IMG/VR virus record: IMGVR_UViG_2529292919_000025 | From: a virus | Taxonomy: Duplodnaviria; Heunggongvirae; Uroviricota; Caudoviricetes | Reading direction: 5' to 3' (one strand) | Length of the DNA stretch: 43,511 nucleotides | Shown here: piece by piece, positions 4,068 to 40,117 of the stretch | How the letters are laid out: the number at the start of each line of letters is the position of its first letter | Numbering within the stretch: the first letter of the stretch is position 1 | Program-made: the position numbers and the translations under genes | The notes under the pieces: model-generated | Seen by the model: the letters and a program-made list of their open reading frames with translations, nothing else | What the model was told of the DNA's origin: nothing | Database searches by the model: none

Positions 4068-4073
4068 TTATAT

Positions 4074-8321: not shown

Positions 8322-8659
8322 AGCAGCTCCTGAGTCCGGGTCTGTCCGTCTGAGCCTTTCCAGCTCACCCGGAGCGTAAGATGTTCGCCGTCGACGGCGG
8401 GTTTAACTGACATAAGCTGGCAGCGGGGCTCCCAGCGCCGGATGGCATCGACGGATTCGCGCACCACATGCGGAATGGCCCGGTCTACAGGCCAGTCGAT
8501 ATAAAGATGCAGATTGCTGCCGAACTCCGGGCGATGCGGGTCGCTGCCGCGGGGAGTCCGCAGGATAATTTGAATCGCCTGCCGGATATCATCCAGCCCC
8601 CGGACAATTTCGCCGGGAGCCTGCAGGGTCGGTTGCCAGAATACTGAGGTTGTTTTCAT
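8312..8659 (-). CDS. Baseplate wedge protein (GPW/gp25-like, Mu gp46 position)
   Basis: 115 aa, size and position typical of GPW; GC-rich hairpin overlaps its start. Confidence 0.65.
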   Translation of the reverse strand: MKTTSVFWQPTLQAPGEIVRGLDDIRQAIQIILRTPRGSDPHRPEFGSNLHLYIDWPVDRAIPHVVRESVDAIRRWEPRCQLMSVKPAVDGEHLTLRVSWKGSDGQTRTQELLWR

Positions 8660-8713
8660 GGGGGCAGTATTGCCCCCGTGCGGGAACGCTGATATTAAAG
8701 GCGTTTAAAAAGC

Positions 8714-9310
8714 TCAGTGGGAGTGGTGGCTGGAGTTTTCGCCATCAGACAACATACTGCCCGTGGCATGGGCATTCCCTTTAATCTCGATATTGCCATG
8801 GATGGTCGCGGTAACACCTTCACCACCAGAACCCGCCATGCCTCCTTCGTAAATCAGCTTACCCCTGACACGCAGATCTCCGGTAAGTTCGGTTTCCGGT
8901 GCGTCAATCGTGGCTTTCTGTGTTTTCAATACCACATCAGCACCACACTCAATGACAATATGCTCAATGCCGCCCCGGATGGTCAGAGTGTGCGTCTTCC
9001 GGTTGTAGCTGTACTCTGCACCATCAGCAAACCGGGTTCCCCGGATATTTTTGTCACTGAACGGTGGTTTATCGACGTCTGAATACACCGCGCCCAGAAT
9101 AACACCATCCTCGCCGTTGGCATCGAGCAGCACCTCAACCTGCTCCCCCACGTCAGGGAGCCAGTAATCTTTGTTATCCTGGGTATTGCGCTGCAGCACG
9201 TTAAGCCAGTTTGTGCGCAGGTTATCGCATTCAGGCAGACGAACGCGGGCCTGAACCCTGTCGGCATCAACGGCACTGACCGTACCGACCTGACGAGTGA
9301 CACCAGTCAT
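8714..9310 (-). CDS. Baseplate spike/assembly protein V-like (Mu gp45 position)
   Basis: 198 aa, gpV-like N-terminal OB-like region and Gly-rich C-terminus. Confidence 0.65.
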   Translation of the reverse strand: MTGVTRQVGTVSAVDADRVQARVRLPECDNLRTNWLNVLQRNTQDNKDYWLPDVGEQVEVLLDANGEDGVILGAVYSDVDKPPFSDKNIRGTRFADGAEYSYNRKTHTLTIRGGIEHIVIECGADVVLKTQKATIDAPETELTGDLRVRGKLIYEGGMAGSGGEGVTATIHGNIEIKGNAHATGSMLSDGENSSHHSH

Positions 9311-14571: not shown

Positions 14572-14829
14572 CTATGATTTGTCGCCGTACTCGCTTTTGA
14601 TTTGCTCTTCAGCCTGCTCCAGCCACATCTCCAGATCGTCAGTATCGAGGGCATCAATCTCCCCCGGCTGAAACCGGAACCATCTCGCCAGCAGCCCCTG
14701 CGCCTGCGTCAGCGCCTTTGTCGCTCTCACCCATCCCCGTGATGAGCTGAAATCGTTTCTGTAACTGCAGGTAATCAGCCAGGTCCATATTGTCGAGATC
14801 TTCCGGGAGAAGACCAGTACTGCGGGCAA
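14572..14829 (-). CDS. Tail assembly chaperone frameshift extension (gpE'/GT-like), downstream frame
   Basis: ORF in the +1 frame relative to 14654-14989, overlapping it by 176 nt and extending 27 codons further towards the tape measure. Confidence 0.45.
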   Translation of the reverse strand: MPAVLVFSRKISTIWTWLITCSYRNDFSSSRGWVRATKALTQAQGLLARWFRFQPGEIDALDTDDLEMWLEQAEEQIKSEYGDKS

Positions 14830-14989
14830 TCAGCGGTTCGTCCCAGTCTGCCGGGTTTTTGCTGATTTTGCGCACCTGCTTCAGGTCTTTTACCGTCAGG
14901 CGTTTCAGTTCAACCTGCTCAATTCTGGTGCCTGCAGCAGTGGTGAAGGGATAAGACAATTTAAAAGTATCGGATGGGGTCTGTGACAT
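14654..14989 (-). CDS. Tail assembly chaperone (gpE/G-like), upstream frame
   Basis: 111 aa directly upstream of the tape measure; acidic C-terminus; overlapped by a second ORF in another frame. Confidence 0.6.
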   Translation of the reverse strand: MSQTPSDTFKLSYPFTTAAGTRIEQVELKRLTVKDLKQVRKISKNPADWDEPLIARSTGLLPEDLDNMDLADYLQLQKRFQLITGMGESDKGADAGAGAAGEMVPVSAGGD

Positions 14990-15086
14990 GATTGTGCTCC
15001 TGTGTAAGTTCAGGGCAGTATGTCGGGAGAAGCGCGTGACGGATATTAAAGGAGATTAAGAAGAAGGGGCCGGAGCCCCTGTGATG

Positions 15087-18819: not shown

Positions 18820-19773
18820 TTATTTACTGATACCGGTAATGAGATACCCGGCATCGCCACCAACCACGGCGACTTTGTAGATATCGGTATAACGGCAGTA
18901 CTTCACCTTGCCACCGGCTCCGTCGTATTTGTCGGCAACAGGCATCCCCTTACGACGCAGGGTGTAGCCGAAGGACGGCTCGTTCTCGTCCGCGCTGTCC
19001 GCCCCCGGCTGCGGTTTGCCGACATAGTGCAGCATCAGATTGTCTCCCCAGATATCCGCCGGCACGCTGTTCTTATCCATTGCCGCTTTCATGGACGGCA
19101 GGGAGACTGGGGCACCGATGACGATCTCTTCGATCTGAAAGAGGTCCTGCAGGATTTCTGTGGTGATGCGCTTGCGTTCGTTGGCTCCGATGGCGGCCTG
19201 AATCGCCGGGTGGAACTTCAGCAGCGCCATCACGCCGGCCCCCATGGTCATCAGGTTAGGACGCAGCCCCGTGGCCGTACGGACCGCTTCCATACCGGCT
19301 TCAATCACCCCGATGGGGTCCCCCTTACCACCGGCCCAGCGATCACTGGCTGTCAGTTTTTTGACGTGCCCGGTACGGTAGACCTTTTCATCCTGAGCCA
19401 GACGGGCAGCGATAAGTTCACGGCGCAGGTTCACGCCATTCGTGGCGCGACGGATGGCCTTGCTCTCTTCGTTAAACATGGACTCCGCCTGCTCGCGATA
19501 GTCCACCGGCGCAGCCAGATCGTGTTCACCCAGCACCAGGTCCAGCGTGCCTGTTTTTTCACGGACCAGAACATTGCTGTCCGCCCCGACGGCACGCTCG
19601 GTGTCATATTCCACAAAGGCGGTTTTCCCGAAGGTCGGTACACGCACGCCTTCCTTGTCCGTCTGCACGACGGGGAAAATACGTTCGCCGATGAATGCGG
19701 CATTTTTATAGCCACGGGCGATACTGGTCAGTACCGGATCAACGACACGTTTACCTTTTAAGTAATCAGACAT
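18820..19773 (-). CDS. Major head subunit (Mu gpT-like)
   Basis: 317 aa; Mu-type major capsid sequence character; follows the protease/scaffold gene. Confidence 0.8.
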   Translation of the reverse strand: MSDYLKGKRVVDPVLTSIARGYKNAAFIGERIFPVVQTDKEGVRVPTFGKTAFVEYDTERAVGADSNVLVREKTGTLDLVLGEHDLAAPVDYREQAESMFNEESKAIRRATNGVNLRRELIAARLAQDEKVYRTGHVKKLTASDRWAGGKGDPIGVIEAGMEAVRTATGLRPNLMTMGAGVMALLKFHPAIQAAIGANERKRITTEILQDLFQIEEIVIGAPVSLPSMKAAMDKNSVPADIWGDNLMLHYVGKPQPGADSADENEPSFGYTLRRKGMPVADKYDGAGGKVKYCRYTDIYKVAVVGGDAGYLITGISK

Positions 19774-19787
19774 GCTCTCTCCTTAAA

Positions 19788-20903
19788 TTACAGGCAGCGT
19801 GCGACAGCAGCCTCATAGCTGATGCCTTCTTTTTTGGACAGGGCCACTGCTTTCTGATGCAGGGCCAGACGCTCAGGATCGGCTTCCGCAAACTCTGCCA
19901 CATCCACCTTCACCGTGTCGCCGACACGCTCTTTTGTGGCCTGTTCGGCGAAATTCATCACCGGCTCCCCGTCGGAGAGCAATGAACGAAAGGCGGTGGC
20001 CAGCGGTGTGCGGCTTTCCCCCTCAGCAAACTCCACCGGCTTGTCGCCACCGGCGACGGCATCCAGCAGGGCAACCACCACGGAGGAGGCGCGGGGAGCC
20101 AGACGGCCCTCTGCGACCAGTTTTTCTGCAAAGGCCACATTGTCCTTATGCAGTTGCTCCTGTCTGACCTGTGCATCACGCGCATCGCGATCAGCAGCCT
20201 GCTGCTTCAGGCGGCGGTTCTCCTCCTGAAGGGCTTCAATCTCTTCTTTTGTCATCGATGATTCCTCGTTACTTGCGGAAGACGGCCCCGGGCCTGTCTC
20301 ACTGAATTGTGCACCTGCTGCATCCTGCGACAGTGTGTCGCGGTACGCCTCTTCGCGCAGACTGTTGAGCTGCCATTCCGGCAGGACTTTTTCTGCCTCG
20401 TCCAGACTGAAGCGGGCGATCAGAAAATCGCGCAGCTTTCCCCACAGGGAGGCATTCGTGATGGCCTGCCAGTCGGCGAACTCCACCACACCTTCTTCCT
20501 GCTCACTGAAGGACACCTGTTTCAGCCCCTTGACGGAAGGTGGCTGTGCCCCGAGAAAGCCCACATGGCGAAGGTAGAGCACGCCGGGCTTCGGATTGGA
20601 CGGTGAATCCGGGAGGTAGAAAGAGGCGGACACTTTTTTGAATCGTCCGTCGGTGACCATCTCAGCAAACTGCGGGTCCAGCTGGGCAGGCTCTGCCATC
20701 AGATCGACGCCGCTGAGCGACAGGGCTTTCACCCAGCCCCACGCCGGGTCTTCCGTTCTGGGATGACCAATCACGAGTGGTGCTTCATGGACGGACGGGT
20801 CATAGGCTTTCACGCAGGCGGCAAGATCGTCTGGCGTGAACGGCAGTTTTTTGCCGTGCATATCGGTATGAGTACCGGCTTTAAAAATGTGAATGGCTGA
20901 CAT
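19788..20903 (-). CDS. Head protease/scaffold protein (Mu I-like)
   Basis: 371 aa; N-terminal protease-like region, C-terminal coiled-coil/acidic scaffold-like region (EEIEALQEENRRLKQQAADRDARD). Confidence 0.7.
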   Translation of the reverse strand: MSAIHIFKAGTHTDMHGKKLPFTPDDLAACVKAYDPSVHEAPLVIGHPRTEDPAWGWVKALSLSGVDLMAEPAQLDPQFAEMVTDGRFKKVSASFYLPDSPSNPKPGVLYLRHVGFLGAQPPSVKGLKQVSFSEQEEGVVEFADWQAITNASLWGKLRDFLIARFSLDEAEKVLPEWQLNSLREEAYRDTLSQDAAGAQFSETGPGPSSASNEESSMTKEEIEALQEENRRLKQQAADRDARDAQVRQEQLHKDNVAFAEKLVAEGRLAPRASSVVVALLDAVAGGDKPVEFAEGESRTPLATAFRSLLSDGEPVMNFAEQATKERVGDTVKVDVAEFAEADPERLALHQKAVALSKKEGISYEAAVARCL

Positions 20904-21117
20904 TTTGCTGTCCCGCGTTATGTTGTCGGAGACAGTTTGTGAGAAATGCAGGCCCGGCGATTTTAATCTGCTTTAGAAAACATCAGGGGAGAAGGACAGG
21001 GAAAGCAATGCGGTGAACCGGAGGCGGTTATAAAACAGAGGCTGTAAAGCCTTTATAAAGGTAATACAGCCCCTCATTCGCTGGCAATGATAAATCACCC
21101 GCCTGAAGAGAGAAAAC
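20904..21117 (-). promoter_or_regulatory. Candidate late promoter region upstream of the protease/scaffold gene
   Basis: Only sizeable gap in the head cluster; contains ATTAAAATC-N23-CTGTCTCC, the same arrangement found upstream of the lysis operon. Confidence 0.4.
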
Positions 21118-21576
21118 TCAGCGACGGGCCGCTGATTCAAGATGGCGGACAATGGTATCGAGGATGGGGATTACCACTTCAGGCTGTAGTTCTCCATCCC
21201 CTGTCACCGGCAGGAACGGGCGGGCCGGAAGTTCAACAGACTCATTACGCCCCGTTTTACCCCCGAACTGGTGAATGGCACCGTAAACAACGTTGGTCCC
21301 CACAACAGCCTGCCGGTCGTCATGGTCGGTTGATACTGACCCCATCAGACGCCCGGTATCCTGCAGTGTCTGCCCGTCACGTTCTTCCGCTGCCAGCGAG
21401 GGGATCCACCCCGGACGCCCCTCATCAAGAAAGTTAAACTGTGTTTCCGCCAGCAGGGTTCCGGCGATTTTGCGCATCGCGGGCTCCAGGTCTGTGGCAG
21501 CAAGATCCAGCGCACGGAGGCTCCGGCGCAGGGATTTATCGTTAATGGTGATACTGACCAGGTTATCGGAAGCCAT
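21118..21576 (-). CDS. Virion morphogenesis protein (Mu G-like)
   Basis: 152 aa after the F-like head morphogenesis gene. Confidence 0.65.
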   Translation of the reverse strand: MASDNLVSITINDKSLRRSLRALDLAATDLEPAMRKIAGTLLAETQFNFLDEGRPGWIPSLAAEERDGQTLQDTGRLMGSVSTDHDDRQAVVGTNVVYGAIHQFGGKTGRNESVELPARPFLPVTGDGELQPEVVIPILDTIVRHLESAARR

Positions 21577-21578
21577 TG

Positions 21579-22400
21579 TTATCCTCTCAGTTCCTGTTGT
21601 GCCAGTGGCTGAAGCGTACCCTGATAGCGGGCCAGGTCGGGACGGTATGCTGCCCCCGGTGCATAAGACCAGCCGACGTCGGTGGTCACCTTCGTGGTGC
21701 CGGTATTAAAGGTGGCCACGTTCCGCATTTCGCCGGTTTTCTCTGAGACCAGTTTCAGTTCCTGGCCCATGGCAGAGCCGGAGCTGATAACCTTCAGGCC
21801 ACGGGCACGTACATCCGCCGCACTCAGGGCAATCACACTACAGCGGCAGCGCCAGCCGTTCGGCGGGTAAAATGCCTGCCAGAACGGGTCATCCCAGCGC
21901 AGCACCAGACCATGCAGCGCCAGATGGCTCCTGCGGGTATGGCTGTCGTTGATGCCGGTATACATCCAGTACGGCCTGTCGTCGACGTTTTCCATCTGTT
22001 CCGCCCAACGACCGGCGCTGTAGAGTACGGACATATTGGTGCGAAAGATGGTATCGAGCCGCCACGGACTGCCCTGCTGAATGGTGACCGGCTCACCCGT
22101 TACCGGGTCAGTCGTGTCACGTGGTCCCCACCATCCCTTACGCTTCAGCACCGGCTCCAGCTCCTGCCGGAACCAGCGATCGGTTTTTCCTTCATCGACA
22201 GCCTGCTGCAGTGCCCCGCGAATATCTTCCAGGATATCCAGGCGGGTCACTTTAGCAACGGTAAAGGCGCGGGCATGGGCCTCCTGCCACATTTCTTCCC
22301 AGTCCCAGGTAATCTGATACCCTTTGGACTTCAGGTAACTGACTGCCCGCTTCGGGGGAAGCGTCATGCAGTACGCCAGTTCAGCCGTTGTCACGCTCAT
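21579..22400 (-). CDS. Head morphogenesis protein (Mu F-like); start set at first ATG
   Basis: Track ORF extends to 22427 from a TTG; first in-frame ATG is at 22400, 20 nt inside the portal end. Confidence 0.65.
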   Translation of the reverse strand: MSVTTAELAYCMTLPPKRAVSYLKSKGYQITWDWEEMWQEAHARAFTVAKVTRLDILEDIRGALQQAVDEGKTDRWFRQELEPVLKRKGWWGPRDTTDPVTGEPVTIQQGSPWRLDTIFRTNMSVLYSAGRWAEQMENVDDRPYWMYTGINDSHTRRSHLALHGLVLRWDDPFWQAFYPPNGWRCRCSVIALSAADVRARGLKVISSGSAMGQELKLVSEKTGEMRNVATFNTGTTKVTTDVGWSYAPGAAYRPDLARYQGTLQPLAQQELRG

Positions 22401-23877
22401 GCAGACGCCCCCGGATATTTGCCACAAAGAGAATACGGGCCAGCCGTTCCTGCAGATCGTCCGTGTTCATCTGAGGGTAGAGCTCCGCCAGTTCGCCCAG
22501 CAGCTCAGTCGGGTTAACCCCGTTTTCGACCCGCTTAAACAGAGGTGCCAGGACGGGTTCCAGCGTGCCATTTAACACACCTCCGTTCATCAGAATGTCC
22601 AGCGCGTCGTCAAGCTGCTGCTGAGCCTGAATATCGGCATCAATCGCCTCGGCAAATGACAGCGGCAGCATGTTATTCTGGCGTTCCGACGGTGATGTCT
22701 CGTCAATATCGCCGTCCTGCAGTTGGTACTCACGCTTAAAGTATTGCGGGGTCAGACGCAGACCCGCCCGGGTGAGTTTTTCGTCGCGGGTGGCGCGGGT
22801 GTCATCAATGGTCTCCTGTTCCCACATGGCCCAGACCGGACACGGCACATCGCCGAAGTTCAGGGTGACCACCGTTCTGATAACCTGATTCACTGCTGCC
22901 TGAATGATGTCCGCATCCGCATCGCGGATATCAGCCGTTACCTCCAGCCCGGCCTGTGCAGAGGCCTTGTTACTGTTCGCTTCCGTGGTCTGATTCTGAC
23001 CAAGTAATGCAATGGAGATCTCACTGCGTGACAGTGTGATCAGCTCGCGGAATACCTCGCTGCTGTCCGCCTTACCATCCGCGGCTTTGAGTTCGATGCT
23101 GCTGTCATCGGGGATGGCGGCCACCGCGTCCTCCACCATCTGCTCCATGGAGTCCAGCAGTTTTTCAATCTCTGCATCATTTGCACCCCTCGGGTGCTTA
23201 CCGATCACCCACGGGGAGCCAAACTTTTCGGCAAAGCGGAGCCAGAATTTCATCCCGCCTTTCTTGAAGGCGACCGGCCAGAAGCACATGGACAGGTCCG
23301 GGAAACCGTAAGGATTGTCATACGAGGCATCCTGTGCCGGCACCACGAATTTTGACGGTGACAGCAGCTCACCCTCCACACCCGCATCACGCGCCCGGAA
23401 GCGCAGGCAGTTGTCCGTATCAAACTGAAACCACTCAGGCGGTTTGCCGACAATATCCGTCACCGCCCACGACCTGACCGAACGGCCCCACATGATTTCA
23501 CAGGGCTGATACCCGTAGAGCACGGCATCGCTCATTTCACCGATGATGCGGGACAGATCCAGATCGTCGAGCATGTCGCGGATGAAACGGAAGACCCGGG
23601 CAGAGGCGTGACCACGCTCCAGTCCACGCTCCAGCGATTTGAGCGCTGCTTTACGTCTGCGGATACAGCCCCCGACCAGCGGGTCGGTGCGCAGTTCGCG
23701 GTAGATACGGATATCCCGTCCCTGAGCCTTGAGAATGGGATCAGGATTGGGCAGATACATGCCCAGTCCGTAAAAGTCGATCGCGCGGCTGCGGGAGGCA
23801 ATCTGCGCGGTCAGTGATTTCTGAGGCTCAGAAAAAGCAACAAATTCATCGGGTGAAACCCAGATACCCCTCGCCAT
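22381..23877 (-). CDS. Portal protein (Mu gp29-like)
   Basis: 498 aa immediately after the large terminase (1-nt overlap). Confidence 0.8.
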   Translation of the reverse strand: MARGIWVSPDEFVAFSEPQKSLTAQIASRSRAIDFYGLGMYLPNPDPILKAQGRDIRIYRELRTDPLVGGCIRRRKAALKSLERGLERGHASARVFRFIRDMLDDLDLSRIIGEMSDAVLYGYQPCEIMWGRSVRSWAVTDIVGKPPEWFQFDTDNCLRFRARDAGVEGELLSPSKFVVPAQDASYDNPYGFPDLSMCFWPVAFKKGGMKFWLRFAEKFGSPWVIGKHPRGANDAEIEKLLDSMEQMVEDAVAAIPDDSSIELKAADGKADSSEVFRELITLSRSEISIALLGQNQTTEANSNKASAQAGLEVTADIRDADADIIQAAVNQVIRTVVTLNFGDVPCPVWAMWEQETIDDTRATRDEKLTRAGLRLTPQYFKREYQLQDGDIDETSPSERQNNMLPLSFAEAIDADIQAQQQLDDALDILMNGGVLNGTLEPVLAPLFKRVENGVNPTELLGELAELYPQMNTDDLQERLARILFVANIRGRLHERDNG

Positions 23878-25472
23878 CAGAATCCCTCCAGCATACGGGC
23901 CGCCTGACGACGACGGCGTGAGCTTGCCTTCACCGGCTCTTTGTTAATTTCACGGCTGGCGAAATACGCCAGCGCCAGTGCGATGGCTGAATCCCCGTGG
24001 CGTTTACCACCGTCAGCCTTTGCTTTTGAGCGTTGCTCCGGTACGCGGGGGACACCGTTCACCACCTGAACGGCCCGCAGGTCATCCAGTGTGTCTTCAT
24101 CCTTTGGTAAGTCCACCAGGTTACCGTCTTCCAGTGCAGCTTTGACCGGAGGCATATGCTCCCGGTACCAGCCTTCGGTTGGCATCACCTGCTGAATCCG
24201 GCCGGAGCCGTAGCGCTGCATGGCGTATTCAGCCAGATAGGCACCATTACCACGGGCATCAAACGCTGCACCCAGCAGACCGGGCAGGCCATCCATCAGA
24301 TACCAAGTGATTTGCTCCTGCTGTCTGAACGGCACGTTACGCAGCTCCAGTACGAATGGCACGCGTCGTACCAGGTTCTTCTCCTGCAGCAGGGGATAGT
24401 CCACCGACAAATCACCGCTACGGCCAAAGTCGCGCCCCAGGAAAGAGCGGGCATCAGTGGGGAGTGCCTCCAGCAAGGGTTTCAGATACTCATCAAGCCA
24501 GTCCTGCGTCTCGCGGAAGCGAACCTCATCAGACAGCAGTTCATAACCTTCCTTGCAGGTCAGACGCAATACCGGCGTATCAGCGGACATGCGGGACTCT
24601 ATCAGGGCACGGGACAGCCAGGCACCGCCACCGTTGGCCGGAATACAGTCAAGCTCTTCGGATGCGCCGGCACCGTAGAATTTGTACACCGATGCCATCC
24701 AGGCCTGCTCGGATGCCTCCGACCATTCCTTCCCGGTGCGCAGACAGACGCGCCGGAACAGCCCCTCAGATACGGCTTCCCGGAAAGTGATGCGATGTAT
24801 GCTGCCTCCCTGACGTCCGGCACGGATATCCCCGATAAGCGTATTGAACGGATTGTCGTCACCGTCATGGGTGGAGATAACGCGTACCTTTCCCCCCCAG
24901 ATAAGCATCGCCAGCGCCGCTTTCAGCAGTTCGTCCAGTTGCTCATGGAACGCCGCTTCGTCGATAACAATAATACCCTGACGGCCACGCAGGTTAGACG
25001 GGCGGCTGGAGAGCGCAACAATACGAAAGCCGGAGTCAGGAAATTTGATGGTGTAAGTCCTGATGTGTTTGTCGTCGTCGTCCTCTTCCCAGAATCCTTC
25101 TTCAATTTCACTGGCCGCATAGTTGAATGCCCGTGCCCACATCGCACACGCCTGAATGTATTCGACGGTCATGTCCTGGTTATAAGCGATGTAATACACA
25201 TTCATCCCGCCTGCTGGCGCAGAAGAGGCGGCGGTCAGTACGTTATCGGATGCCTCAGCCCATGTAATACCGGTACGACGGCTCTTTTCTATCACCTTAA
25301 GCGGAGAGGTGTCTGCCACCCAGCGCTGCTGGTAAGGCAACAGAACGGGAGGAGCATCCAGCGCCGAGGTATCAGGCAAAACGGGAGCAAGGTTATTCCT
25401 CCCGTCCATGGGACTCATCCCTTCGGGGCCACCGCCAGCGGCGTTTAAAATCACTCCGGATGATTTTGTCAT
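23877..25472 (-). CDS. Terminase large subunit
   Basis: 531 aa, ATPase/nuclease-like terminase sequence; 4-nt overlap with small-subunit gene. Confidence 0.8.
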   Translation of the reverse strand: MTKSSGVILNAAGGGPEGMSPMDGRNNLAPVLPDTSALDAPPVLLPYQQRWVADTSPLKVIEKSRRTGITWAEASDNVLTAASSAPAGGMNVYYIAYNQDMTVEYIQACAMWARAFNYAASEIEEGFWEEDDDDKHIRTYTIKFPDSGFRIVALSSRPSNLRGRQGIIVIDEAAFHEQLDELLKAALAMLIWGGKVRVISTHDGDDNPFNTLIGDIRAGRQGGSIHRITFREAVSEGLFRRVCLRTGKEWSEASEQAWMASVYKFYGAGASEELDCIPANGGGAWLSRALIESRMSADTPVLRLTCKEGYELLSDEVRFRETQDWLDEYLKPLLEALPTDARSFLGRDFGRSGDLSVDYPLLQEKNLVRRVPFVLELRNVPFRQQEQITWYLMDGLPGLLGAAFDARGNGAYLAEYAMQRYGSGRIQQVMPTEGWYREHMPPVKAALEDGNLVDLPKDEDTLDDLRAVQVVNGVPRVPEQRSKAKADGGKRHGDSAIALALAYFASREINKEPVKASSRRRRQAARMLEGF

Positions 25473-26014
25473 GTGGCAATCCCCAGAATCTCGCGACGAA
25501 GCGCCTGTACTGCGTCGCTTGACAGTCCCCCCTTACGGGCAATTTTCTCGGCGTTGCTGGCTGCCTGCTGCGCTCTGGCCCGTACTTCAGACTGGAACTT
25601 TTTGAGGTTGACGGACGCGCGGGACAGCGTAGCCACATTCTTCGCCACCTTCGACAGCAGGGCCACGCGTTCTTTAGGATCGACTTCGCCTTCTTCCGCC
25701 TCCTGCAACTGGACAATACTCTCGAACAGCTCGGTCTGAATAAGGGCTATCACAGCCTCCGAACGCGCATCCTGATCGTCTGCTGCGCCTTCGGTCAGCA
25801 TGCGGGCCGCTTCTGTTGCCGCACGGATAGCACCATAGCGGCGCTCAATCTTCTGTCCATAGCGATGGATAGCGGATTTGCTGATAACGTACCCCCGCTC
25901 ACGCAGCAGGGACTCCAGCTCGTTATACCCGCTGAAGCCGGATTCAGTCAGCGCCCGTTCAAGCCAGCGGCGCACATCTTCCGGCAGCTTTTCTATTGTG
26001 CTGCGTCTGGCCAT
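25469..26014 (-). CDS. Terminase small subunit-like protein (Mu gp27 position)
   Basis: 181 aa basic/helical protein directly upstream of the large terminase. Confidence 0.6.
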   Translation of the reverse strand: MARRSTIEKLPEDVRRWLERALTESGFSGYNELESLLRERGYVISKSAIHRYGQKIERRYGAIRAATEAARMLTEGAADDQDARSEAVIALIQTELFESIVQLQEAEEGEVDPKERVALLSKVAKNVATLSRASVNLKKFQSEVRARAQQAASNAEKIARKGGLSSDAVQALRREILGIAT

Positions 26015-26325
26015 TATTCACTCCAGTACTTTTCCGGGCGGGCAATACCCGGACCACATTCCACGGTGTATTCCACCAGGTCTACGCCGAGGCGGGTCAG
26101 GTCAGCAAACCAGTCGCCAGAAGGTTTTTTCTCCAGATCAACCATTTTACGGTCAGCCAGATAATCCAGTTCGCGGCGCAGTTCCAGCGGTGTGGTGTCC
26201 GGGTAGATGGCACGGGACACATCCAGCAGCAGCGTCTCGCTGGCGGTGTAAGGGCGGGTCTTGTTCAGGGCAACCAGCAGACTCCAGCGCAGGGATTCGC
26301 GGCGTACCCGGGTAATATCGACCAT
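26014..26325 (-). CDS. Hypothetical protein (Mu gp26 position)
   Basis: 103 aa, overlapping neighbours within the late operon. Confidence 0.45.
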   Translation of the reverse strand: MVDITRVRRESLRWSLLVALNKTRPYTASETLLLDVSRAIYPDTTPLELRRELDYLADRKMVDLEKKPSGDWFADLTRLGVDLVEYTVECGPGIARPEKYWSE

Positions 26326-26651
26326 TATTGACCTCCGGTATTGCGGTACTGCTGTACCACTTCCAGTTTGTTATAAAGCGCGTCCAGTTTGGCCTCAATG
26401 ACTGTCTGGCCACGGATATAATCCTCTCGACGGACATAATTCAGCGGTAAATCCGCTTTAAATCGCATAAATTCTTTTTCCAGCTCGCCCCAGTTGGAGG
26501 CGGATTGTTGCAGGGCCTGTTCAAGGGAGGCGAATCGTGCCGCCTGGCGTTCTTCTGTTTTACTGAACAACCATTTGGCGAGCCCTCCCACAAACCCCAT
26601 GAAGGTGAGCAGAAAACTCACCACCGTCCAGAATTCAACCTGCAGTGTCAT
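26325..26651 (-). CDS. Hypothetical membrane protein (Mu gp25 position)
   Basis: 108 aa with N-terminal hydrophobic segment VVSFLLTFMGFVGGLAKWLF. Confidence 0.45.
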   Translation of the reverse strand: MTLQVEFWTVVSFLLTFMGFVGGLAKWLFSKTEERQAARFASLEQALQQSASNWGELEKEFMRFKADLPLNYVRREDYIRGQTVIEAKLDALYNKLEVVQQYRNTGGQ

Positions 26652-27298
26652 TTCTGTAATCCTTCCCGTTCATCCAGTAACGCGTTTATCTGGTTCCGCC
26701 AGCGACGACATTGTCCTGCGTTGTCGATGATGTTGGCGAGAACGTCACGCTGGGAGACACCCGAATCGCGTAACCGGGTGTCAGTGGTTTCAGGTTGCCC
26801 GGTCGCTGTGCCAGAGCGGGTGCCAGCGGCGGCAACTGAGTCTGAATGACCGGTGTCGACGGATGCGTTGTCATATCCGAGTGCGGCGTTGTACTGGCGC
26901 ACGAAACCGCGAGTAAACACGCACTCAATGGGATGGCTCTTACCTTTTTCATCAATCCAGCGCTGTGTGACATCGTTAATTTGCCCCTGTAGTTGTTTAT
27001 TCCGGCTCTCCAGTTGAGCAATCTGCTCAAGATAACCGGCTTCAGCCCGCTGCCCGGCGGCCACCTGCTCCTGATACCGTCTGGCCCAGGCCCGCAGCGC
27101 AGCATTCTCAAGCGTTGCCTGCTCCGTTTTGTACGCGTCAAATGCTGACTGCAACTGACTGAGCGCGGTATCACCGTCACGCTTTGCAGAGTCATGACCA
27201 CTTCTGTATCCCATGGCATAAAGGCCGACCAGAAAGGCATTGATAAGAATGGCCAGCAGAATGCCGCGCCACGGCAGCTTTTTAACCAGATGCCACAC
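26648..27298 (-). CDS. i-spanin (Rz-like); start uncertain
   Basis: N-terminal TM (WRGILLAILINAFLVGLYAMGY) then coiled coil; GTG start at 27298 preceded by GGGAGG; contains embedded Rz1-like ORF. Confidence 0.55.
   Translation of the reverse strand: MWHLVKKLPWRGILLAILINAFLVGLYAMGYRSGHDSAKRDGDTALSQLQSAFDAYKTEQATLENAALRAWARRYQEQVAAGQRAEAGYLEQIAQLESRNKQLQGQINDVTQRWIDEKGKSHPIECVFTRGFVRQYNAALGYDNASVDTGHSDSVAAAGTRSGTATGQPETTDTRLRDSGVSQRDVLANIIDNAGQCRRWRNQINALLDEREGLQK
26686..26952 (-). CDS. o-spanin (Rz1-like lipoprotein) embedded in the +1 frame of Rz
   Basis: MKKVRAIPLSACLLAVSCAS lipobox-like signal followed by a Pro-rich short protein, fully inside the Rz-like gene. Confidence 0.55.
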   Translation of the reverse strand: MKKVRAIPLSACLLAVSCASTTPHSDMTTHPSTPVIQTQLPPLAPALAQRPGNLKPLTPGYAIRVSPSVTFSPTSSTTQDNVVAGGTR

Positions 27299-28022
27299 AA
27301 CTGCTGCCTCCCCATGTGAGATATCGCGGTGCCAGTTCGCGCAGGATGCGCTGCGGATAATGGCGGTTCTCCCGCCAGCTGGCCGCATTGCGTCCGGCAT
27401 TCACCGTGGCGACATGTCCGAACCAGCGGGTGCTGTCCAGACCTTTCTGTGATGCAAGCCGCCTGTCCCGTTGTACCCAGCCCAGACCACCGTTATAGCC
27501 CGACAGTGTCATGGCCATACGCTCGCAGTCACTGGCGGCGCTGACACGCTGCCACAGCCAGCGGTCATAGCTGACCAGCGCCCGGATAGCCCATGCCGGA
27601 TTAAACGGCTCACGACTGCTCAGCATCGGTATCAACTGGCTTATCCAGTCGGCAGTGGCAGGCATGAACTGCGCCAGTCCCTGAGCGCCAGCCGGCGAGA
27701 TCGCATCAGGTCGCCAGCCGCTTTCCTGATGCAGTTGCGCGGCGAAATCGGCCACCGGCGCAGACAGTCCCCATTCAAGCCGGGCATTACGGATCACATC
27801 ATCGCGATACTGCAGCGCAGCCTGCGGAGGTTGTGCTGCGCATGCCTGGCTGAAAAAGCCGCCACACCAGAGCAACATTGCGACAAAGAATACCCATGCC
27901 ATATGAACCAGAAAGGTCCCGGCGCGGACTGACAGGCGTTCGGTTCTGATGAAGACCCGAAAGGCTTCGAAAGCCAGTTTCAGGGACATGCATACAATCC
28001 AGGTGATCTGCGGCCAGTTCAT
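27282..28022 (-). CDS. Endolysin, lytic transglycosylase (SLT domain) with N-terminal signal-anchor
   Basis: LHQESGW...GAQGLAQFMPATA motif; hydrophobic N-terminus; ATG overlaps stop of upstream membrane protein (TAATCATG). Confidence 0.75.
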   Translation of the reverse strand: MNWPQITWIVCMSLKLAFEAFRVFIRTERLSVRAGTFLVHMAWVFFVAMLLWCGGFFSQACAAQPPQAALQYRDDVIRNARLEWGLSAPVADFAAQLHQESGWRPDAISPAGAQGLAQFMPATADWISQLIPMLSSREPFNPAWAIRALVSYDRWLWQRVSAASDCERMAMTLSGYNGGLGWVQRDRRLASQKGLDSTRWFGHVATVNAGRNAASWRENRHYPQRILRELAPRYLTWGGSSCVASG

Positions 28023-28024
28023 GA

Positions 28025-28376
28025 TTAAAGCCCCATCGCAACAGCCAGGCAGACCGCTGCAACAATCAGTGCACGGCGGATTAACGCAGCAGAAAACACC
28101 AGGTGAAGGCCGGTCTGTACCGGGAAACGCCCTTCAGCCATCAGCCTGTCGTCATGTTTCAGGTACTGACCGGGACGGGCTTTGGGGAAGAGCGAACGGT
28201 CAAGCCAGTAACCCAGCACTGCTGCCAGCGTGATAAGTGCCAGCTTGTAGATCACAACAGGCAATTGCTGTGGCGAGACCAGAGCGATGATGCCCAGCAA
28301 CAGCACTGAGGTCAGCAGCCAGCCGCTGAGGCGAGGTTTTTTAACAGGGGGAATGAATTTTTTCAGGTTTTTCATG
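28025..28376 (-). CDS. Holin-like membrane protein (two predicted TM segments); start trimmed to ATG at 28376
   Basis: ATG at 28376 preceded by GAGGAG; conserved promoter-like motif lies inside the longer track ORF (to 28423). Confidence 0.5.
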
Positions 28377-28505
28377 TGTGTCTCCTCGTTTGGTGGAGAC
28401 AGCATCACAAATACAGGGCGCAAAGGATTTTAAAGCGCGTTAAGAGAGCCGGGGATACGGGATGTGCAGGATAAACGATGAATTATTCACAGAGGAGAAT
28501 ACGAT
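28377..28505. promoter_or_regulatory. Divergent promoter region: late (lysis) promoter candidate and promoter of the P-loop gene
   Basis: TTTAAAATC-N23-CTGTCTCC on the minus strand 18 nt upstream of the holin-like ATG, matching the motif upstream of the protease/scaffold gene. Confidence 0.4.
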
Positions 28506-29234
28506 ATGACGCAGACACTGAATCCGGTCATCACTGTCACCGTGTCCGGTCCTGTGGGCAGCGGTAAAAGTTACATATTGGCGCAGATAGAGGAAGTGGT
28601 GAAACAGGAATTCGGAAACAGCGTCATTGTCGACGCCGCAGACGTGGACGGTGAGCGCCGTATGAGTGGGGATGATCTGAGCACATGGCAGAAACCACGG
28701 GCTGGCACAGTGATCAGGCTGGAGGAATACACGGGACAGGGCCTGTTGTCATACGGCGAGGAGCGTATCTGTCGGACGAATGAGCTGCTGGATGTTATAT
28801 GCCCCACGGGCCGGCAACCCTGGATACTGCCCGATGCACTGCATGCCACCATTGCGGCACTGATGACAGTTTACGATCAGGAGCTGCTCATGAAGGAGTT
28901 ACGTAAACTCACCGGTCAGCCAACAGAATGTTGTTCGTCTCCGAAGTACGGCAAACAGGAACACATCCCGATTAACCAGCCTCCCCGGTTCTTCGACGAA
29001 TACCTTCTGACACCGGAAAATAAAGCTGAGCATGAAGAGATCAAAGCGGCGTTGTTCCGGGAAATCAGGAAGATTGCTGAAATGCAACTGGAGGGCGGGC
29101 TGGACAGAGTGATGGCGAGAGGAGAATGGGAATCGCTGTTTGAAAGAACTTCCCCGGAATTACTTCCCCTCGCACTGGCCATCGGGATTATGCAGACAGC
29201 GGATAAACCTCACTTACGTTCATTAAACACGTAA
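28506..29234 (+). CDS. P-loop NTPase/kinase-like protein, unknown function
   Basis: 242 aa; Walker A GPVGSGKS at residues 15-22, candidate Walker B VIVD; SD GAGGAG 9 nt upstream; on the strand opposite to the late operon. Confidence 0.6.
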   Translation: MTQTLNPVITVTVSGPVGSGKSYILAQIEEVVKQEFGNSVIVDAADVDGERRMSGDDLSTWQKPRAGTVIRLEEYTGQGLLSYGEERICRTNELLDVICPTGRQPWILPDALHATIAALMTVYDQELLMKELRKLTGQPTECCSSPKYGKQEHIPINQPPRFFDEYLLTPENKAEHEEIKAALFREIRKIAEMQLEGGLDRVMARGEWESLFERTSPELLPLALAIGIMQTADKPHLRSLNT

Positions 29235-29614
29235 CTCATAATCCGGGATACGCGTTCAGCGATGACTGCATTTTCACCGGTTTTTACTGCATCCAGAAGT
29301 GACTCTTTAAATGGTGCGGGCCGGGGCTGCAGAAGGGTCGGCGTGGCATTGAGCAGACGGAGCGTTTTTTCCGTGAGGACGACATCAGCCGCTCCCACAG
29401 CCAGCAACTGAGAGTAACGAATATAGCTGTTATCCCGAAGCCATATCAGCGTATCAATAAAATACCGGCACTTTTTCTGGTCGTGATCAACCTGGTCCGG
29501 AATATCGAAAAAACCAGAATAAATCAAAACCTGAGGTGCCGGATGCGTGTTCAGTAATCGGCAGAATATTTTGCCGGTGAGTGCATAAAAATCATCATTT
29601 AAGGAGTGCATCAT
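29210..29614 (-). CDS. Hypothetical protein
   Basis: 134-aa ORF convergent with and overlapping the P-loop gene by 25 nt; no motif recognised. Confidence 0.4.
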   Translation of the reverse strand: MMHSLNDDFYALTGKIFCRLLNTHPAPQVLIYSGFFDIPDQVDHDQKKCRYFIDTLIWLRDNSYIRYSQLLAVGAADVVLTEKTLRLLNATPTLLQPRPAPFKESLLDAVKTGENAVIAERVSRIMSYVFNERK

Positions 29615-29828
29615 GAATCCCCGATTAACGTTAACAGAACATCAGCGCCGTGCTGAAGCAGTGAACAATGTTCTGGAAGATATTATCCGGTTACATCGCG
29701 GAGAACTGAGTGTCTGTCGTGCCGCTTTTCATTTTCAGGGAATACAAAAGCAGTTTGATACTTCTGTTTTTGCAGAAGGTATTACTTATGCCCTGGACCG
29801 GATAAGGTCAGAAAATCGCCCCGGATAA
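29613..29828 (+). CDS. Hypothetical small protein
   Basis: 71 aa; strong SD AAGGAG 6 nt upstream of ATG; followed by a GC-rich hairpin (29885-29912) and then the methyltransferase gene. Confidence 0.5.
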   Translation: MNPRLTLTEHQRRAEAVNNVLEDIIRLHRGELSVCRAAFHFQGIQKQFDTSVFAEGITYALDRIRSENRPG

Positions 29829-30018
29829 TCCCTAAACCACATTAACAGAAATCCCGCCATCCCTGCCGCATCATGAAAGAACGACCAGCCCGGCACCCGA
29901 AAGCCGGGCTGGTCATCGCCCCACAGGAATGCGCTGTGAGCCGACCAAGGTTCAGTCAGTCTCGCGAGACCTGACCAGACTGCCATATTTTTTAATAATT
30001 GTAAAAGGCTTACAGATT

Positions 30019-30783
30019 ATGAAAATGCAGACATTACCCATCGTGCCGTGGATTGGTGGCAAACGCCGCCTTGCAAAACACATTCTGCCGCTGTTTCCGG
30101 CGCATGAATGTTATGTGGAGCCGTTTTGTGGGGCAGCAGCGCTCTATTTTCTTAAGACACCCGGCAAGATCGAAGTCATCAATGATATCAACGGTGAACT
30201 GGTGAATCTGTACCGGGTGGTAAAGCATCACCTGGAAGAATTTGTCCGCCAGTTCAAATGGGCGCTGGTCAGCCGTCAGATCTACAAATGGCTGCAGATC
30301 ACCCCGGAAGAAACACTGACGGATATCCAGCGTGCGGCACGGTTCTACTACCTTCAGAAGCAGGCGTTTGGCGGCAAGGTGGCAGAGCACAGCTTCGGTA
30401 CCTCCACCACATCCCCGCCACGCTTCAACCTGCTGCGTATTGAAGAAGAACTGTCAGCGGCACACCTGCGGCTTTCCAGAACAGTCATAGAACACATGGA
30501 CTGGCAACAGTGCATTGAGCGTTATGATCGTCCGCACACGCTGTTCTACTGCGACCCACCGTACCTGGGTACGGAAGGCTATGGTGTGGATTTTCCTGAA
30601 GGGAACTACTCGCGGCTGGCAGAGCTGGCCCGGTGCATCAGAGGAAAAATGATAATTTCGGTGAACGACATCCCGCAGATGCGCGAGGTGTTCACTGGAC
30701 TGAACATACAGACAGTGAATATCAACTACAGTCTGGCGGGTAAACCCACGCCGCGCCGTGAACTGCTAATCTGCAACTTCTGA
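30019..30783 (+). CDS. Orphan DNA adenine methyltransferase (Dam-like, DPPY motif)
   Basis: N-terminal VPWIGGKRRL, FxGxAA (EPFCGAAA) and catalytic DPPY (FYCDPPYLGTEG); no adjacent restriction endonuclease gene visible. Confidence 0.8.
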   Translation: MKMQTLPIVPWIGGKRRLAKHILPLFPAHECYVEPFCGAAALYFLKTPGKIEVINDINGELVNLYRVVKHHLEEFVRQFKWALVSRQIYKWLQITPEETLTDIQRAARFYYLQKQAFGGKVAEHSFGTSTTSPPRFNLLRIEEELSAAHLRLSRTVIEHMDWQQCIERYDRPHTLFYCDPPYLGTEGYGVDFPEGNYSRLAELARCIRGKMIISVNDIPQMREVFTGLNIQTVNINYSLAGKPTPRRELLICNF

Positions 30784-30790
30784 AACAAAA

Positions 30791-30813
30791 CCGGAAAGCA
30801 CAATGCTTTCCGG
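30791..30813 (-). terminator. Rho-independent terminator candidate downstream of the repressor gene
   Basis: Perfect hairpin CCGGAAAGC-acaat-GCTTTCCGG followed on the minus strand by TTTTGTTTC. Confidence 0.5.
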
Positions 30814-30899
30814 TAAACCAAACAACTTCCACTATGTCACTGGCGATGTTTTCTGAAAGCATCCAGATCAACCACCTGTCCTTTGTGTCCGGGTCAGTA

Positions 30900-31256
30900 T
30901 CAGCCTGCGATTTTTCCTGGTTTTGGCTGAGTATAGAATCGCCCAATCTCAAGAAATGAGCGTTGTTGGTCTGGTGTCATGTCGTCAAAAGTATCTATTA
31001 GTTTTTGTTTTTCTGGGGAAATTTGATTCTGGTTTCTAGTCATACCATCTGTGCTCATTCCAGTGAGCAACCAATTTACATCAACATTAAACTCTTGATG
31101 CATCTTTAACAGAAACTCCCCTCCAGGCATCGCCTTTCCATTTTCAATCTGACTGATACCACCATTAGAAATACCTAAACGAGCTGCAAATTCTCTCTGG
31201 TTCAACCCTGCTTTCTTCCTCACAGAAATAACGCGCTCTCCTATATCTTTGCTCAT
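30900..31256 (-). CDS. Prophage repressor, XRE-family HTH
   Basis: 118 aa; HTH QREFAARLGISNGGISQIENGK; divergent from the Cro-like gene with a palindromic operator between them. Confidence 0.75.
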   Translation of the reverse strand: MSKDIGERVISVRKKAGLNQREFAARLGISNGGISQIENGKAMPGGEFLLKMHQEFNVDVNWLLTGMSTDGMTRNQNQISPEKQKLIDTFDDMTPDQQRSFLEIGRFYTQPKPGKIAG

Positions 31257-31280
31257 AAAAGTGAATCTCTATCTTGATAT

Positions 31281-31296
31281 GCTCATAATTATGAGC
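31281..31296. promoter_or_regulatory. Operator candidate: perfect 16-bp palindrome GCTCATAATTATGAGC
   Basis: Lies in the 93-bp divergent intergenic region; an extra half-site GCTCATAA (31251-31258) overlaps the repressor start codon. Confidence 0.5.
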
Positions 31297-31349
31297 AATA
31301 ATCTAACACATATAAGGCAAACATCATTGCATCAACAAAGGAGACAACG

Positions 31350-31538
31350 ATGACTGCAGAACAAGTCAAAGCTCTCTTCCGCCAGCGCGGGATCACTTTC
31401 ACCCGCTGGGCAGAAGAAAACGGCTACAACCGCAATGAGGTATACCGCGTTCTCAACGGGCAGACCAAAGCCCGTTACGGTAAATCCCATGAAATCGCCG
31501 TGAAGTTGGGACTGAAATCAACAGCTCAGGCGGCCTAA
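31350..31538 (+). CDS. Cro/Ner-position small HTH DNA-binding protein
   Basis: 62 aa, first gene of the rightward early operon, HTH-like ITFTRWAEENGYNRNEVYRVLNG; does not carry the WPxRY signature I associate with Mu Ner. Confidence 0.6.
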   Translation: MTAEQVKALFRQRGITFTRWAEENGYNRNEVYRVLNGQTKARYGKSHEIAVKLGLKSTAQAA

Positions 31539-31584
31539 ATATTTTGAGTCTTTGTAAAAGGTTATCACATATCGCAAAAGAGGT

Positions 31585-31899
31585 ATGCAGATGAGTAAGA
31601 CGAATGTTTCAAGCTCCGGCAGTCGCATCCTCCGGGTACTCAAAGCGCTGCGCGGTCATGCCCTGAACGGTATTTCTAACGGTGAACTGGCGACAGCACT
31701 GCACGAGTCACCGGCAAACATCAACCGGGCACTCAACACCCTCATTGAAGAAGGGCTGGCTCTGAAACTGGAGAACGGACGTTTTGCACCGGGCATCCAG
31801 TTACTGCAGATCGCCATGGCCCACAGTAACGAGATGGCACGTGCACAGGATCGTATTAACGAAATTAACCAACGTGTCATTTCAGGTAGTCGTTTGTAA
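31585..31899 (+). CDS. Winged-helix DNA-binding protein, hypothetical regulator
   Basis: 104 aa; ILRVLKALRGHALNGISNGELATALHESPANINRALNTLIEEGL resembles IclR/MarR-like wHTH. Confidence 0.5.
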   Translation: MQMSKTNVSSSGSRILRVLKALRGHALNGISNGELATALHESPANINRALNTLIEEGLALKLENGRFAPGIQLLQIAMAHSNEMARAQDRINEINQRVISGSRL

Positions 31900-38943: not shown

Positions 38944-39148
38944 ATCTGTTGTATGTGCCCTGTTCTGGTATTGTTTTGTCGGTTGGTGTACTGCTGAACT
39001 GCACCGCCGTTCAGGGTTTTATTCACGTTACAGTGGTGCCGGCTACTGGATTAGCTGGTCGGTGATGTTCCTGTGCTGGCCTGTGGCGCTTCCTTTATAT
39101 GTCGATTATATCGGTGGCGCAGGTAAAAGGAGCAACGATGATGACTAA
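38933..39148 (+). CDS. Small membrane protein; start trimmed to internal ATG
   Basis: ATG at 38933 (MTAESVVCALFWYCFVGW...), two hydrophobic segments; track ORF 38777-39148 overlaps the previous gene in another frame. Confidence 0.4.
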   Translation: MTAESVVCALFWYCFVGWCTAELHRRSGFYSRYSGAGYWISWSVMFLCWPVALPLYVDYIGGAGKRSNDDD

Positions 39149-39590
39149 ACAACGTCTTATCCAGCTCATTCATATTGCCCGTAATGAACTGGGTATGGAT
39201 GAAGACACCTACCGCCAGATGTTACAGGGGCTGACCGGTAAAGCCTCAACCAAAGGAATGGATACCACACAACTAAACTGCGTGCTGGAATCCATGAAAA
39301 GGAAAGGCTTTCGCGTTAAGCCTGCCGGAAAAGCCAGCTCAGGTTTACCGCTGGATAACCATCCGCAGTCCAGGAAAATCCGTGCGCTATGGCTTGAAAT
39401 GGCTGCTGCCGGCATTGTTCGTGACCGTTCAGAAAATGCATTAGCGCGGTGGATCAAGCGGGAAACGGGCATCAGCGCCCTGCGCTGGCTCAATACTGAA
39501 CAGGCAAGCAGTGTTATTGAGAAACTGAAGAAGTGGCAGCACAGAGCTGCGGGAGTAAAACATGAGCGACCTGAATCAGTTTCGAAGTAA
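39138..39590 (+). CDS. gemA: GemA-like protein (Mu gp16 family)
   Basis: ATG at 39138 preceded by AAAGGAG; GemA-like sequence and position immediately before Mor. Confidence 0.6.
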   Translation: MMTKQRLIQLIHIARNELGMDEDTYRQMLQGLTGKASTKGMDTTQLNCVLESMKRKGFRVKPAGKASSGLPLDNHPQSRKIRALWLEMAAAGIVRDRSENALARWIKRETGISALRWLNTEQASSVIEKLKKWQHRAAGVKHERPESVSK

Positions 39591-39951
39591 AGGGCCGGAA
39601 CTCCTGGTGGAACTGGCACAGCATACCTCTGAGACCGTTCGCGAGATTATTGATATTGAGCCCGCAATTGCCGACCAGATTGGTCAGGCCGTCGCGAACC
39701 GCATGATGCAGGTCTGGGGCGGGCAAAACGTTTATTTCCCGATGGGCATGGTATGGAAGGTCAGTCAGCGCGACCGGGAAATCTTCAGGGAGTTTAACGG
39801 ACGTAACCACCATGAACTGGCCCGCAAATTTGGTGTTTCGCTTCAGTGGGTCTACAGCGTGGTTAAGCGGGTAAGAAAAGAAGAACTGGATCGGATGCAG
39901 GGCAAGCTATTTGCTGATGAACCCGATGTAGATACGGAGAAAAAAGAGTAA
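39562..39951 (+). CDS. mor: Mor/C-family transcription activator
   Basis: 129 aa with C-terminal HTH ELARKFGVSLQWVYSVVKR; last gene before the prophage end. Confidence 0.7.
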   Translation: MSDLNQFRSKGPELLVELAQHTSETVREIIDIEPAIADQIGQAVANRMMQVWGGQNVYFPMGMVWKVSQRDREIFREFNGRNHHELARKFGVSLQWVYSVVKRVRKEELDRMQGKLFADEPDVDTEKKE

Positions 39952-39980
39952 TATCTGCAATCAGGCTGGAGCGAGTTCTG

Positions 39981-40117
<137 letters not shown>

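Follow-up and report, generated by a model that had tools for sequence, protein, structure and literature searches.

The DNA analysed here, the IMG/VR virus record IMGVR_UViG_2529292919_000025 (43,511 nucleotides (nt); 'the window' means this whole stretch), is a BcepMu/SalMu-type transposable Mu-like prophage of E. coli with late genes on its minus strand and early genes on its plus strand. Four of the late genes are preceded by the same two-part element, an 18-base-pair (bp) dyad box with a -10 element at a fixed distance downstream, and we consider it very likely that this element marks a set of late promoters dependent on the single Mor-family activator of the prophage. Mor/C-dependent promoters are well known from phage Mu; what is new is the set of members in which a site like that of the Mu promoter Pm serves late genes. 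The motif, its fixed geometry, its gene position across a wide phage family, its match to Mu Pm and the single activator gene can all be read directly from the DNA. No description of the box was found in the literature searched, which did not cover the papers on BcepMu (Summer 2004) and B3 (Braid 2004).

The predicted promoter unit and its four sites

The conserved unit consists of the dyad box, (T/C)TAA-N6-TTAAAA(T/G)C, and a -10 element, nAnnCT, exactly 19 nt downstream of it. Each of the four sites contains an imperfect dyad, (n)YTAA-N6-TTAAW, made of two 5-bp half-sites in inverted orientation; the dyad centre lies about 43.5 bp upstream of the predicted transcript start; starts are predicted throughout from the geometry of Mu Pm. 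The four promoters are all intergenic and on the late (minus) strand, to which the coordinates in this paragraph refer. The lysis promoter, Plys, has the box TTAACGCGCTTTAAAATC (28426..28443; 24.5-25.5 bits), built on the dyad TAA-N6-TTA and with TTTAAAATC as its 3' half, and the -10 GATGCT 19 nt past the box (28401..28406), with a predicted start at 28394/28393 ahead of the holin gene (28025..28375; Pfam Holin_2-3, 6e-42), the first gene of the lysis/head operon. The protease promoter, PI, joins the box CTAAAGCAGATTAAAATC (20959..20976; 24.6-24.8 bits) to the -10 CAAACT (20934..20939) and a predicted start at 20927/20926, before the head maturation protease/scaffold gene (19788..20903; phrog_976, 2e-163). 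Upstream of the tail assembly chaperone gene (14654-14989; Pfam Phage_TAC_7) stand the box TTAATCTCCTTTAATATC (15042..15059) and the -10 CATACT (15017-15022), with a start predicted at about 15010, and upstream of gpW, the gp25-like baseplate gene (8312-8659), the box TTAAACGCCTTTAATATC (8691..8708) and the -10 AATACT (8666-8671), with a start predicted at 8659, the A of the gpW ATG. When the window is scanned with a matrix built from other phages only, these sites rank as the top four, at 25.5 (28426-28443), 24.6 (20959-20976), 22.6 (8691-8708) and 19.6 bits (15042-15059), whereas Markov simulations of the window, scored with a smaller matrix likewise trained on other phages only, gave a mean of 0.23 matches at or above 14 bits. 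A sigma-70 consensus scan predicted no promoter at any of the four sites, and a -35 element is lacking: on visual inspection, hexamers lying 16-18 nt before the -10 agree with TTGACA at no more than one base.

Two of these sites were noticed in an earlier reading of the window, the original prediction, which described a late-promoter-like element shared by the regions upstream of the lysis operon and the protease/scaffold gene. The shared sequence is there: on the minus strand TTTAAAATC, 23 nt and CTGTCTCC occupy 28434-28395 in the holin region, ATTAAAATC, 23 nt and CTGTCTCC occupy 20967-20928 in the protease region, and the composite TTAAAATC-N23-CTGTCTCC matches exactly twice, at 28395-28433 and 20928-20966. 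Nor is it frequent by chance, since the composite, with up to three mismatches allowed, occurs four times where shuffling leads one to expect 0.22 occurrences, and not one of 100 shuffles gave as many. One three-mismatch match, at 39968-40006 (its minus strand begins TGTGAAAATC), sits at about the apparent prophage end and was set aside as a chance match. The boundaries of the motif had to be redrawn, as the similarity runs 9-10 nt further upstream (TTAACGCGCTTTAAAATC against CTAAAGCAGATTAAAATC). The predicted activator site is the upstream dyad, of which only the 3' half had been seen, and the CTGTCTCC block, at index 42-49 of the unit counted from the start of the box, is by its predicted position the last two bases of the -10 element together with the discriminator, not an activator site. 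Some finer points of the earlier description fail. The second block was said to end in (A/G)ACAA, but the sequence at the holin site is CTGTCTCCACCAA; the two sites resemble each other weakly in the internal GCCCTG-ATTT, for which the protease site has GGCCTGcATTT, displaced by 2 nt, and the spacer is not conserved in relatives. The distance of 24 nt to the ATG is right for the protease gene, but the 18 nt given for the holin gene should be 19 nt from CTGTCTCC. Both predicted promoters stand, but there are four rather than two in the window, the additional boxes being those of the tail and gpW promoters.

An intrinsic-terminator-like hairpin followed by a T tract lies after the G-like gene and upstream of PI (21039..21052, minus strand), with an equivalent in BcepMu, and another lies directly upstream of the tail promoter box (15065..15080, minus strand), where it is the top-ranked terminator-like site of the minus strand. 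Their positions fit separate transcription units. A further matrix match at 2814-2831, inside the invertase gene, was rejected as a chance match: it lacks a suitably spaced -10, and the corresponding conserved gin sequence of Mu scores with the box matrix too.

Conservation, the Mu Pm match and the activator

A motif scan of the whole window and of its relatives returns the four late-strand promoters and, in the relatives, the box at matching gene positions. It precedes the holin/lysis, protease, tail-chaperone and gpW genes in phage KP12, Pasteurella phage AFS-2018a and Pseudomonas phage Komp_PAO1_1, and the holin/lysis, protease and gpW genes in BcepMu and phiE255. A search with an alignment of the protease, covering one genome per species, gave 80 loci from Enterobacterales, Pseudomonas, Burkholderiales, Pasteurellaceae, Neisseria and others, in which 205 box matches fall on the late strand and 30 on the opposite strand. 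Of the 80 loci, 63 carry the box in the interval 50-100 nt ahead of the match to the protease; for the lysis position the count is 59 of 71, and for the tail position 59 of 77. In a comparison of 89 promoters that share less than 80% identity with each other, information is highest at TAA (index 2-4), TTAAAA (11-16), A39 (85/89) and T43 (84/89); the spacer is uninformative, the upstream box is by far the best-conserved part, and within the CTGTCTCC block only C42, T43 and G44 are conserved family-wide. Of 169 strong box matches, 164 have a hexamer that begins precisely at index 38 and whose second base is A and sixth base T. Because the -10 positions played no part in the selection of sites, this is independent evidence for a promoter. 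A scan of viral contigs with gpW gave only close relatives (78-100% identity), and so displays the footprint rather than its diversity.

The closest known counterpart is Pm of Mu, in which GTAAAGCCGGTTAATCCG (Mu 9174-9191) is separated by 19 nt from TATCCT downstream; over index 2-14 the BcepMu box shares 12 of 13 bases with Pm. At Pm the Mor dyad spans -51 to -36 with its centre at -43.5, and the bases at -12, -4, -1, +1, +3 and +4 are permanganate-reactive (PMC4287176); the Mor site is composed of two 5-bp inverted repeats (PMC4390567). These permanganate positions fit only if TATCCT occupies -13 to -8, which makes the Mor dyad AGTAA-N6-TTAAT, and the boxes in the window have the half-sites of this site and its register relative to the -10. 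With the dyad, the -10 at a fixed distance, the lack of a -35 and the Pm register, the promoters look as activator-dependent promoters of the Mor/C type would be expected to look, which supports what the original prediction proposed. The C-dependent late promoters of Mu contain no box and give no score with the family matrix, their dyads differing by eye, and for this reason we rejected the label 'C-type' in favour of Pm/Mor-type. Phage B3 has the same genome layout and a divergent Mor helix (VTEDWIY), and it lacks the box. It carries another dyad, TTTTCGG-N5/6-CGAAAAGC (locus L167, ~19835-19854 and ~26800-26860), which before the tape-measure gene stands at the same 19-nt distance from a hexamer, GAGGAT, and which also precedes the B3 protease gene. 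Comparison of these sequences suggests that the box and the recognition helix of Mor co-vary across Mu-like phages.

The only Mor/C-family gene of the window (39562..39951, plus strand; Pfam Mor PF08765, 1.3e-43) is, as had been stated, the last gene of the early strand, and tblastn searches using Mu Mor, Mu C and four relatives revealed no further copy. The helix-turn-helix of its product, ELARKFGVSLQWVY, is kept in BcepMu, the Pasteurella phage and the Pseudomonas phage, all of which share the box. A single homologue at the end of the early genes makes a cascade without a middle step the simplest reading, and the one-step passage from early to late transcription that was originally suggested is thus supported, by computation only. 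After induction the early operon would be transcribed through its last gene, mor; Mor would then bind the dyad as a dimer or tetramer beside RNA polymerase and recruit the host sigma-70 holoenzyme, turning on four late units that run from holin to the G-like gene, from protease to tail tube, from tail chaperone to baseplate V and from gpW to the tail fibres. Neither a middle operon nor a second, C-type activator would take part. We infer the binding by Mor, the transcript starts and the timing from the comparisons above.

Another protein might instead occupy the box, such as the CI-type repressor, an IclR/Ner-like early regulator or a host factor, and the box would then be an operator or an architectural site. 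Its A/T-rich sequence occupies the place expected of an UP element (about -50 to -33), further DNA-binding proteins are encoded in the window (an HTH_3 repressor, 30900-31256; HTH_IclR, 31585-31899), and the assignment of the box to Mor rests on sequence comparison. Yet the early control region (31257-31584), the expected place of repressor operators, contains no box of 9 bits or more, and the half-sites and register of the box match the mapped Mor site of Pm. The box also stays A/T-rich in hosts of 41 to 66% G+C content, which points to a phage-encoded partner, and B3, with its divergent Mor helix, has a different dyad at the same places. The co-variation of helix and dyad and the empty early control region speak for Mor rather than a repressor or host protein, and we regard this alternative as improbable.

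Several observations weigh against Mor-dependent late promoters or reduce the force of the evidence for them. The tail site is weaker than the others (14.9-19.6 bits), and the box goes undetected in about a fifth of the related loci; these sequences are moreover related to one another, so that the counts overstate the number of independent observations. The protein itself, 31% identical to Mu Mor and, over a shorter span, 37% identical to Mu C, is no closer to Mor than to C, so that calling it Mor-like rests on the DNA site and not on the protein. Finally, differential RNA sequencing of the BcepMu lysogen B. cenocepacia J2315 (coordinates mapped as y = 609955 - x) lists no start at the predicted late positions, a result that is uninformative for these uninduced biofilm cells, in which late genes are expected to be silent.

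Hairpins over the start region and possibly leaderless genes

Across the whole family, the bases separating the -10 from the predicted start nearly always form one arm of a hairpin. For 154 unique promoters, folded as RNA of index 28-95 and compared with control segments, the median z was -2.5 against -0.06 for the controls (p = 6e-27). Index 44-49 is paired in 84-95% of the folds, pairing drops from index 50, and the folds have a median energy of -17.3 kcal/mol, compared with -4.1 when the RNA begins at index 50. RNAalifold found no consensus structure in the alignment of protease promoters, in which sub-lineages use different hairpins and which is not a structural alignment, and it was replaced by per-sequence folding with shuffles.

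All four promoters of the window conform (coordinates on the minus strand). The holin inverted repeat, TGTCTCC-N9-GGAGACA (28379..28401), has the end of the -10 and the discriminator (CTGTCTCC) as its 5' arm and the holin Shine-Dalgarno sequence as its 3' arm; read-through RNA folds at -13.3 kcal/mol (z -4.6) and RNA from 28394 at -0.5. Its 7-bp stem persists across 27 Enterobacterales relatives (187 of 189 cells), one of the pairs being C-G, U.G or U-A. The protease inverted repeat, CTGTCTC...GGGACAG (20908..20935), covers the protease Shine-Dalgarno sequence and folds at -10.7 kcal/mol (z -2.1) against -5.9 for RNA from the predicted start; a U.G pair of this stem becomes C-G in KP12, and a U-A pair becomes C-G or U.G in Photorhabdus. 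A hairpin of -12.1 kcal/mol (z -3.6) lies at the tail promoter (14985-15024), and at the gpW promoter the repeat GGGGGCA-ATAC-TGCCCCC (8660..8677; -15.8 kcal/mol, z -3.4) flanks the -10 and ends at the ATG; this repeat is preserved in 80 viral contigs that differ in the spacer preceding it. The hairpins of Pasteurellaceae and Neisseria have a U tract after them.

Such hairpins could themselves be the functional part. An RNA hairpin of CTGTCTCC with the ribosome-binding site would then act within the mature leader, for instance under a Com-like translational activator, and the upstream similarity would be secondary. The over-representation of hairpins just described, with z values of -2.1 to -4.6 in the window, and the G.U-compatible and compensatory changes would agree with this, and in Mu itself Com opens a hairpin at the start of mom. 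The geometry led us to reject a hairpin within the mature leader: its 5' arm occupies index 41-49, between the -10 positions (A39, T43) and the predicted start at index 50, so that RNA made by the promoter should lack this arm. Where a gene has no Shine-Dalgarno sequence, the ATG itself is at index 50 or 51; nothing else in the region is conserved nearly as well as the upstream box; and no Com homologue was found, although none was searched for. This reading therefore appears very improbable to us. That the similarity has no function today and survives from a duplication or a common ancestor of two intergenic regions is scarcely credible, for although the holin and protease sites of the window share a lineage-specific CTGTCTCC block that is not conserved family-wide, the 89 divergent promoters from Gamma- and Betaproteobacteria keep box and -10 fixed and the spacer free at four gene positions.

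For promoters driven by Mor from the upstream box, the simplest reading of the hairpin is protection against read-through, as in IS10, in that only RNA arriving from upstream could form it. The 5' arm would consist of the last -10 bases and the discriminator, and transcripts begun at the promoter would lack it and stay open. In read-through RNA the hairpin would hide the ribosome-binding site (Enterobacterales, Pseudomonas), form a terminator (Pasteurellaceae, Neisseria) or, in leaderless units, flank the -10. We advance a wider proposal, which we hold to be plausible though somewhat short of probable: that the late promoters are built so that only RNA started by the activator can be expressed, and that one symmetric Mor box may in addition fire both ways, with holin on one side and the Dam methylase gene or a gene of unknown function on the other. 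No description of such an insulation device was found for Mor/C promoters. If true, it would be a family-wide device insulating lysis and structural genes, and the hairpin arrangement, if real, would explain how holin and head genes remain silent against read-through in lysogens.

The second part of this proposal concerns two weaker candidate promoters on the plus strand. The palindromic Plys box read in reverse (28430..28447, about 16 bits) is followed after 19 nt by CAGGAT (28467-28472) and faces the divergent open reading frame (ORF) at 28506-29234 (phrog_3787); many relatives have dam opposite the box when it is read this way, and one dyad may serve two divergent promoters. The other candidate box, CTAAACCACATTAACAGA (29832..29849, 17-18 bits), with CATCAT (29869-29874) 19 nt further on, lies upstream of the Dam-type N6-adenine methyltransferase gene (29929-30783, plus strand; Pfam MethyltransfD12, 9e-29). 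Related sites occur in relatives, and a possible counterpart is the late mom promoter of Mu. A conserved GC-rich hairpin at ~29889-29921 also precedes the Dam-type gene. Between the lysis promoter and dam, two ORFs of unknown function, at 29210-29614 (minus strand; phrog_2266) and 28506-29234, are convergent and overlap, and transcription of the minus-strand ORF would run toward the holin gene.

Some of the late genes appear to lack a leader. In the window, KP12, BcepMu, phiE255 and the Pasteurella and Pseudomonas phages (6/6), the gpW ATG stands at box index 50 or 51, 6-7 nt past the -10 and with no Shine-Dalgarno sequence (8659-8677 on the minus strand of the window, 30811-30825 in BcepMu (L002), 28240-28255 in L004 and 17467-17482 in L005). 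The gpW -10 lies in the loop of a GC-rich inverted repeat. This suggests that the gpW mRNA is leaderless, its predicted start being the A of the ATG. The protease ATG likewise stands at index 50 or 51, without a Shine-Dalgarno sequence, in 13 Betaproteobacteria loci (L039-L041, L044, L048-L053, L055, L057 and L078), which suggests a leaderless protease mRNA in those loci. Start codons of this kind agree with the predicted transcript start. In BcepMu the annotated start of gp32, the protease gene, at 18850 overlaps the predicted -10 (18850-18870), and the true start is probably at 18868, 18 nt downstream.

Prophage setting and comparison with known systems

On the late strand the genes run in the order holin, SLT endolysin (27282-28022), spanin (26648-27400), terminase, portal, F-like, G-like, protease/scaffold, capsid, sheath and tube, followed by tail chaperone, tape measure, baseplate V, gpW and fibres; the endolysin and spanin genes, both on the minus strand, follow holin. 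The early genes lead from the CI-type repressor/early control region (30900-31584) through transposase and gemA (39099-39590, plus strand) to the Mor-family gene, which gemA overlaps. The apparent prophage ends lie at ~2357 and ~40007, the right one about 55 nt past the Mor-family gene. Read inward, both start with TGTG (left TGTGCGATAAATGG, right TGTGAAAATCAGACC as the reverse complement), and no clear 5-bp target duplication was seen at them. Near the left end, long inverted repeats of up to 290 nt and 84-91% complementarity occur at 3037-5665, interspersed with ORFs for tail fibres and fibre assembly and adjacent to the gene for a Gin-type invertase (2403-2975), and the region looks like a multi-cassette invertible host-range segment.

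The prophage type is common in E. coli: the 10-kb query formed by window positions 19700-29700 was matched at 80% DNA identity or more in 642 of 5426 complete E. coli genomes. This segment is 99% identical to part of phage PhiKM and shares about 85% identity with Klebsiella phage KP12 and Escherichia phage Phi06_2974 B, and relatives of the prophage span Gamma- and Betaproteobacteria. In such prophages the rule of a box and a -10 can be used to annotate late operons, predict transcript starts and help correct start codons, and it could guide the design of mor-dependent reporters of prophage induction.

Leaderless phage mRNAs are known from lambda cI, transcribed from PRM, and from P2 gene V. 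The gpW unit resembles them in having its predicted start at the A of the ATG, no Shine-Dalgarno sequence and a place in a P2-type baseplate module; unlike in P2, the gene is W and not V, and the start is a predicted one. For IS10 and IS50, fold-back inhibition, in which read-through RNA hides the transposase start, was reportedly described by Davis, Simons and Kleckner in 1985. The phage hairpins resemble this in that their 5' arm precedes the start predicted for the promoter's own transcript, so that only RNA from outside would fold and hide the ribosome-binding site. The phage arrangement differs from the insertion elements in being deduced from sequence, at several promoters inside one phage, and in the terminator-like U tract of Pasteurellaceae and Neisseria and the arms that flank the -10 in leaderless units.

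BcepMu has a like gene arrangement, with gp01 as its Mor/C homologue. As in Mu, the early operon closes with gemA and, after it, the activator gene. The late promoters of Mu are served by C, of the same activator family, through a dyad centred at -43.5 and a -10 without a typical -35 (PMC2582627, PMC4461284). That system also has four late units, one before the lysis gene and one before protease gene I, but its third and fourth promoters precede P and mom, in place of tail chaperone and gpW here, and its C sites differ in sequence (TTAT-N6-ATAA in Pmom, for example). The window promoters share with Mu Pm the TAA-N6-TTA 5-bp inverted repeats within a 16-bp element, the 19 nt from the 18-bp box to the -10 hexamer with the dyad centre at -43.5, and a recognisable -10 with neither a -35 nor an extended -10; their 3' flank is AAAA(T/G)C, against TCCG in Pm. 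Mu has one such promoter, driving the C-encoding middle operon, and requires a third tier, from Mor to C to the late genes, whereas at least four such promoters here appear to drive late operons directly. The three-tier cascade of Mu can thus, it would seem, shrink to two tiers by the placing of Pm-type sites before late genes.

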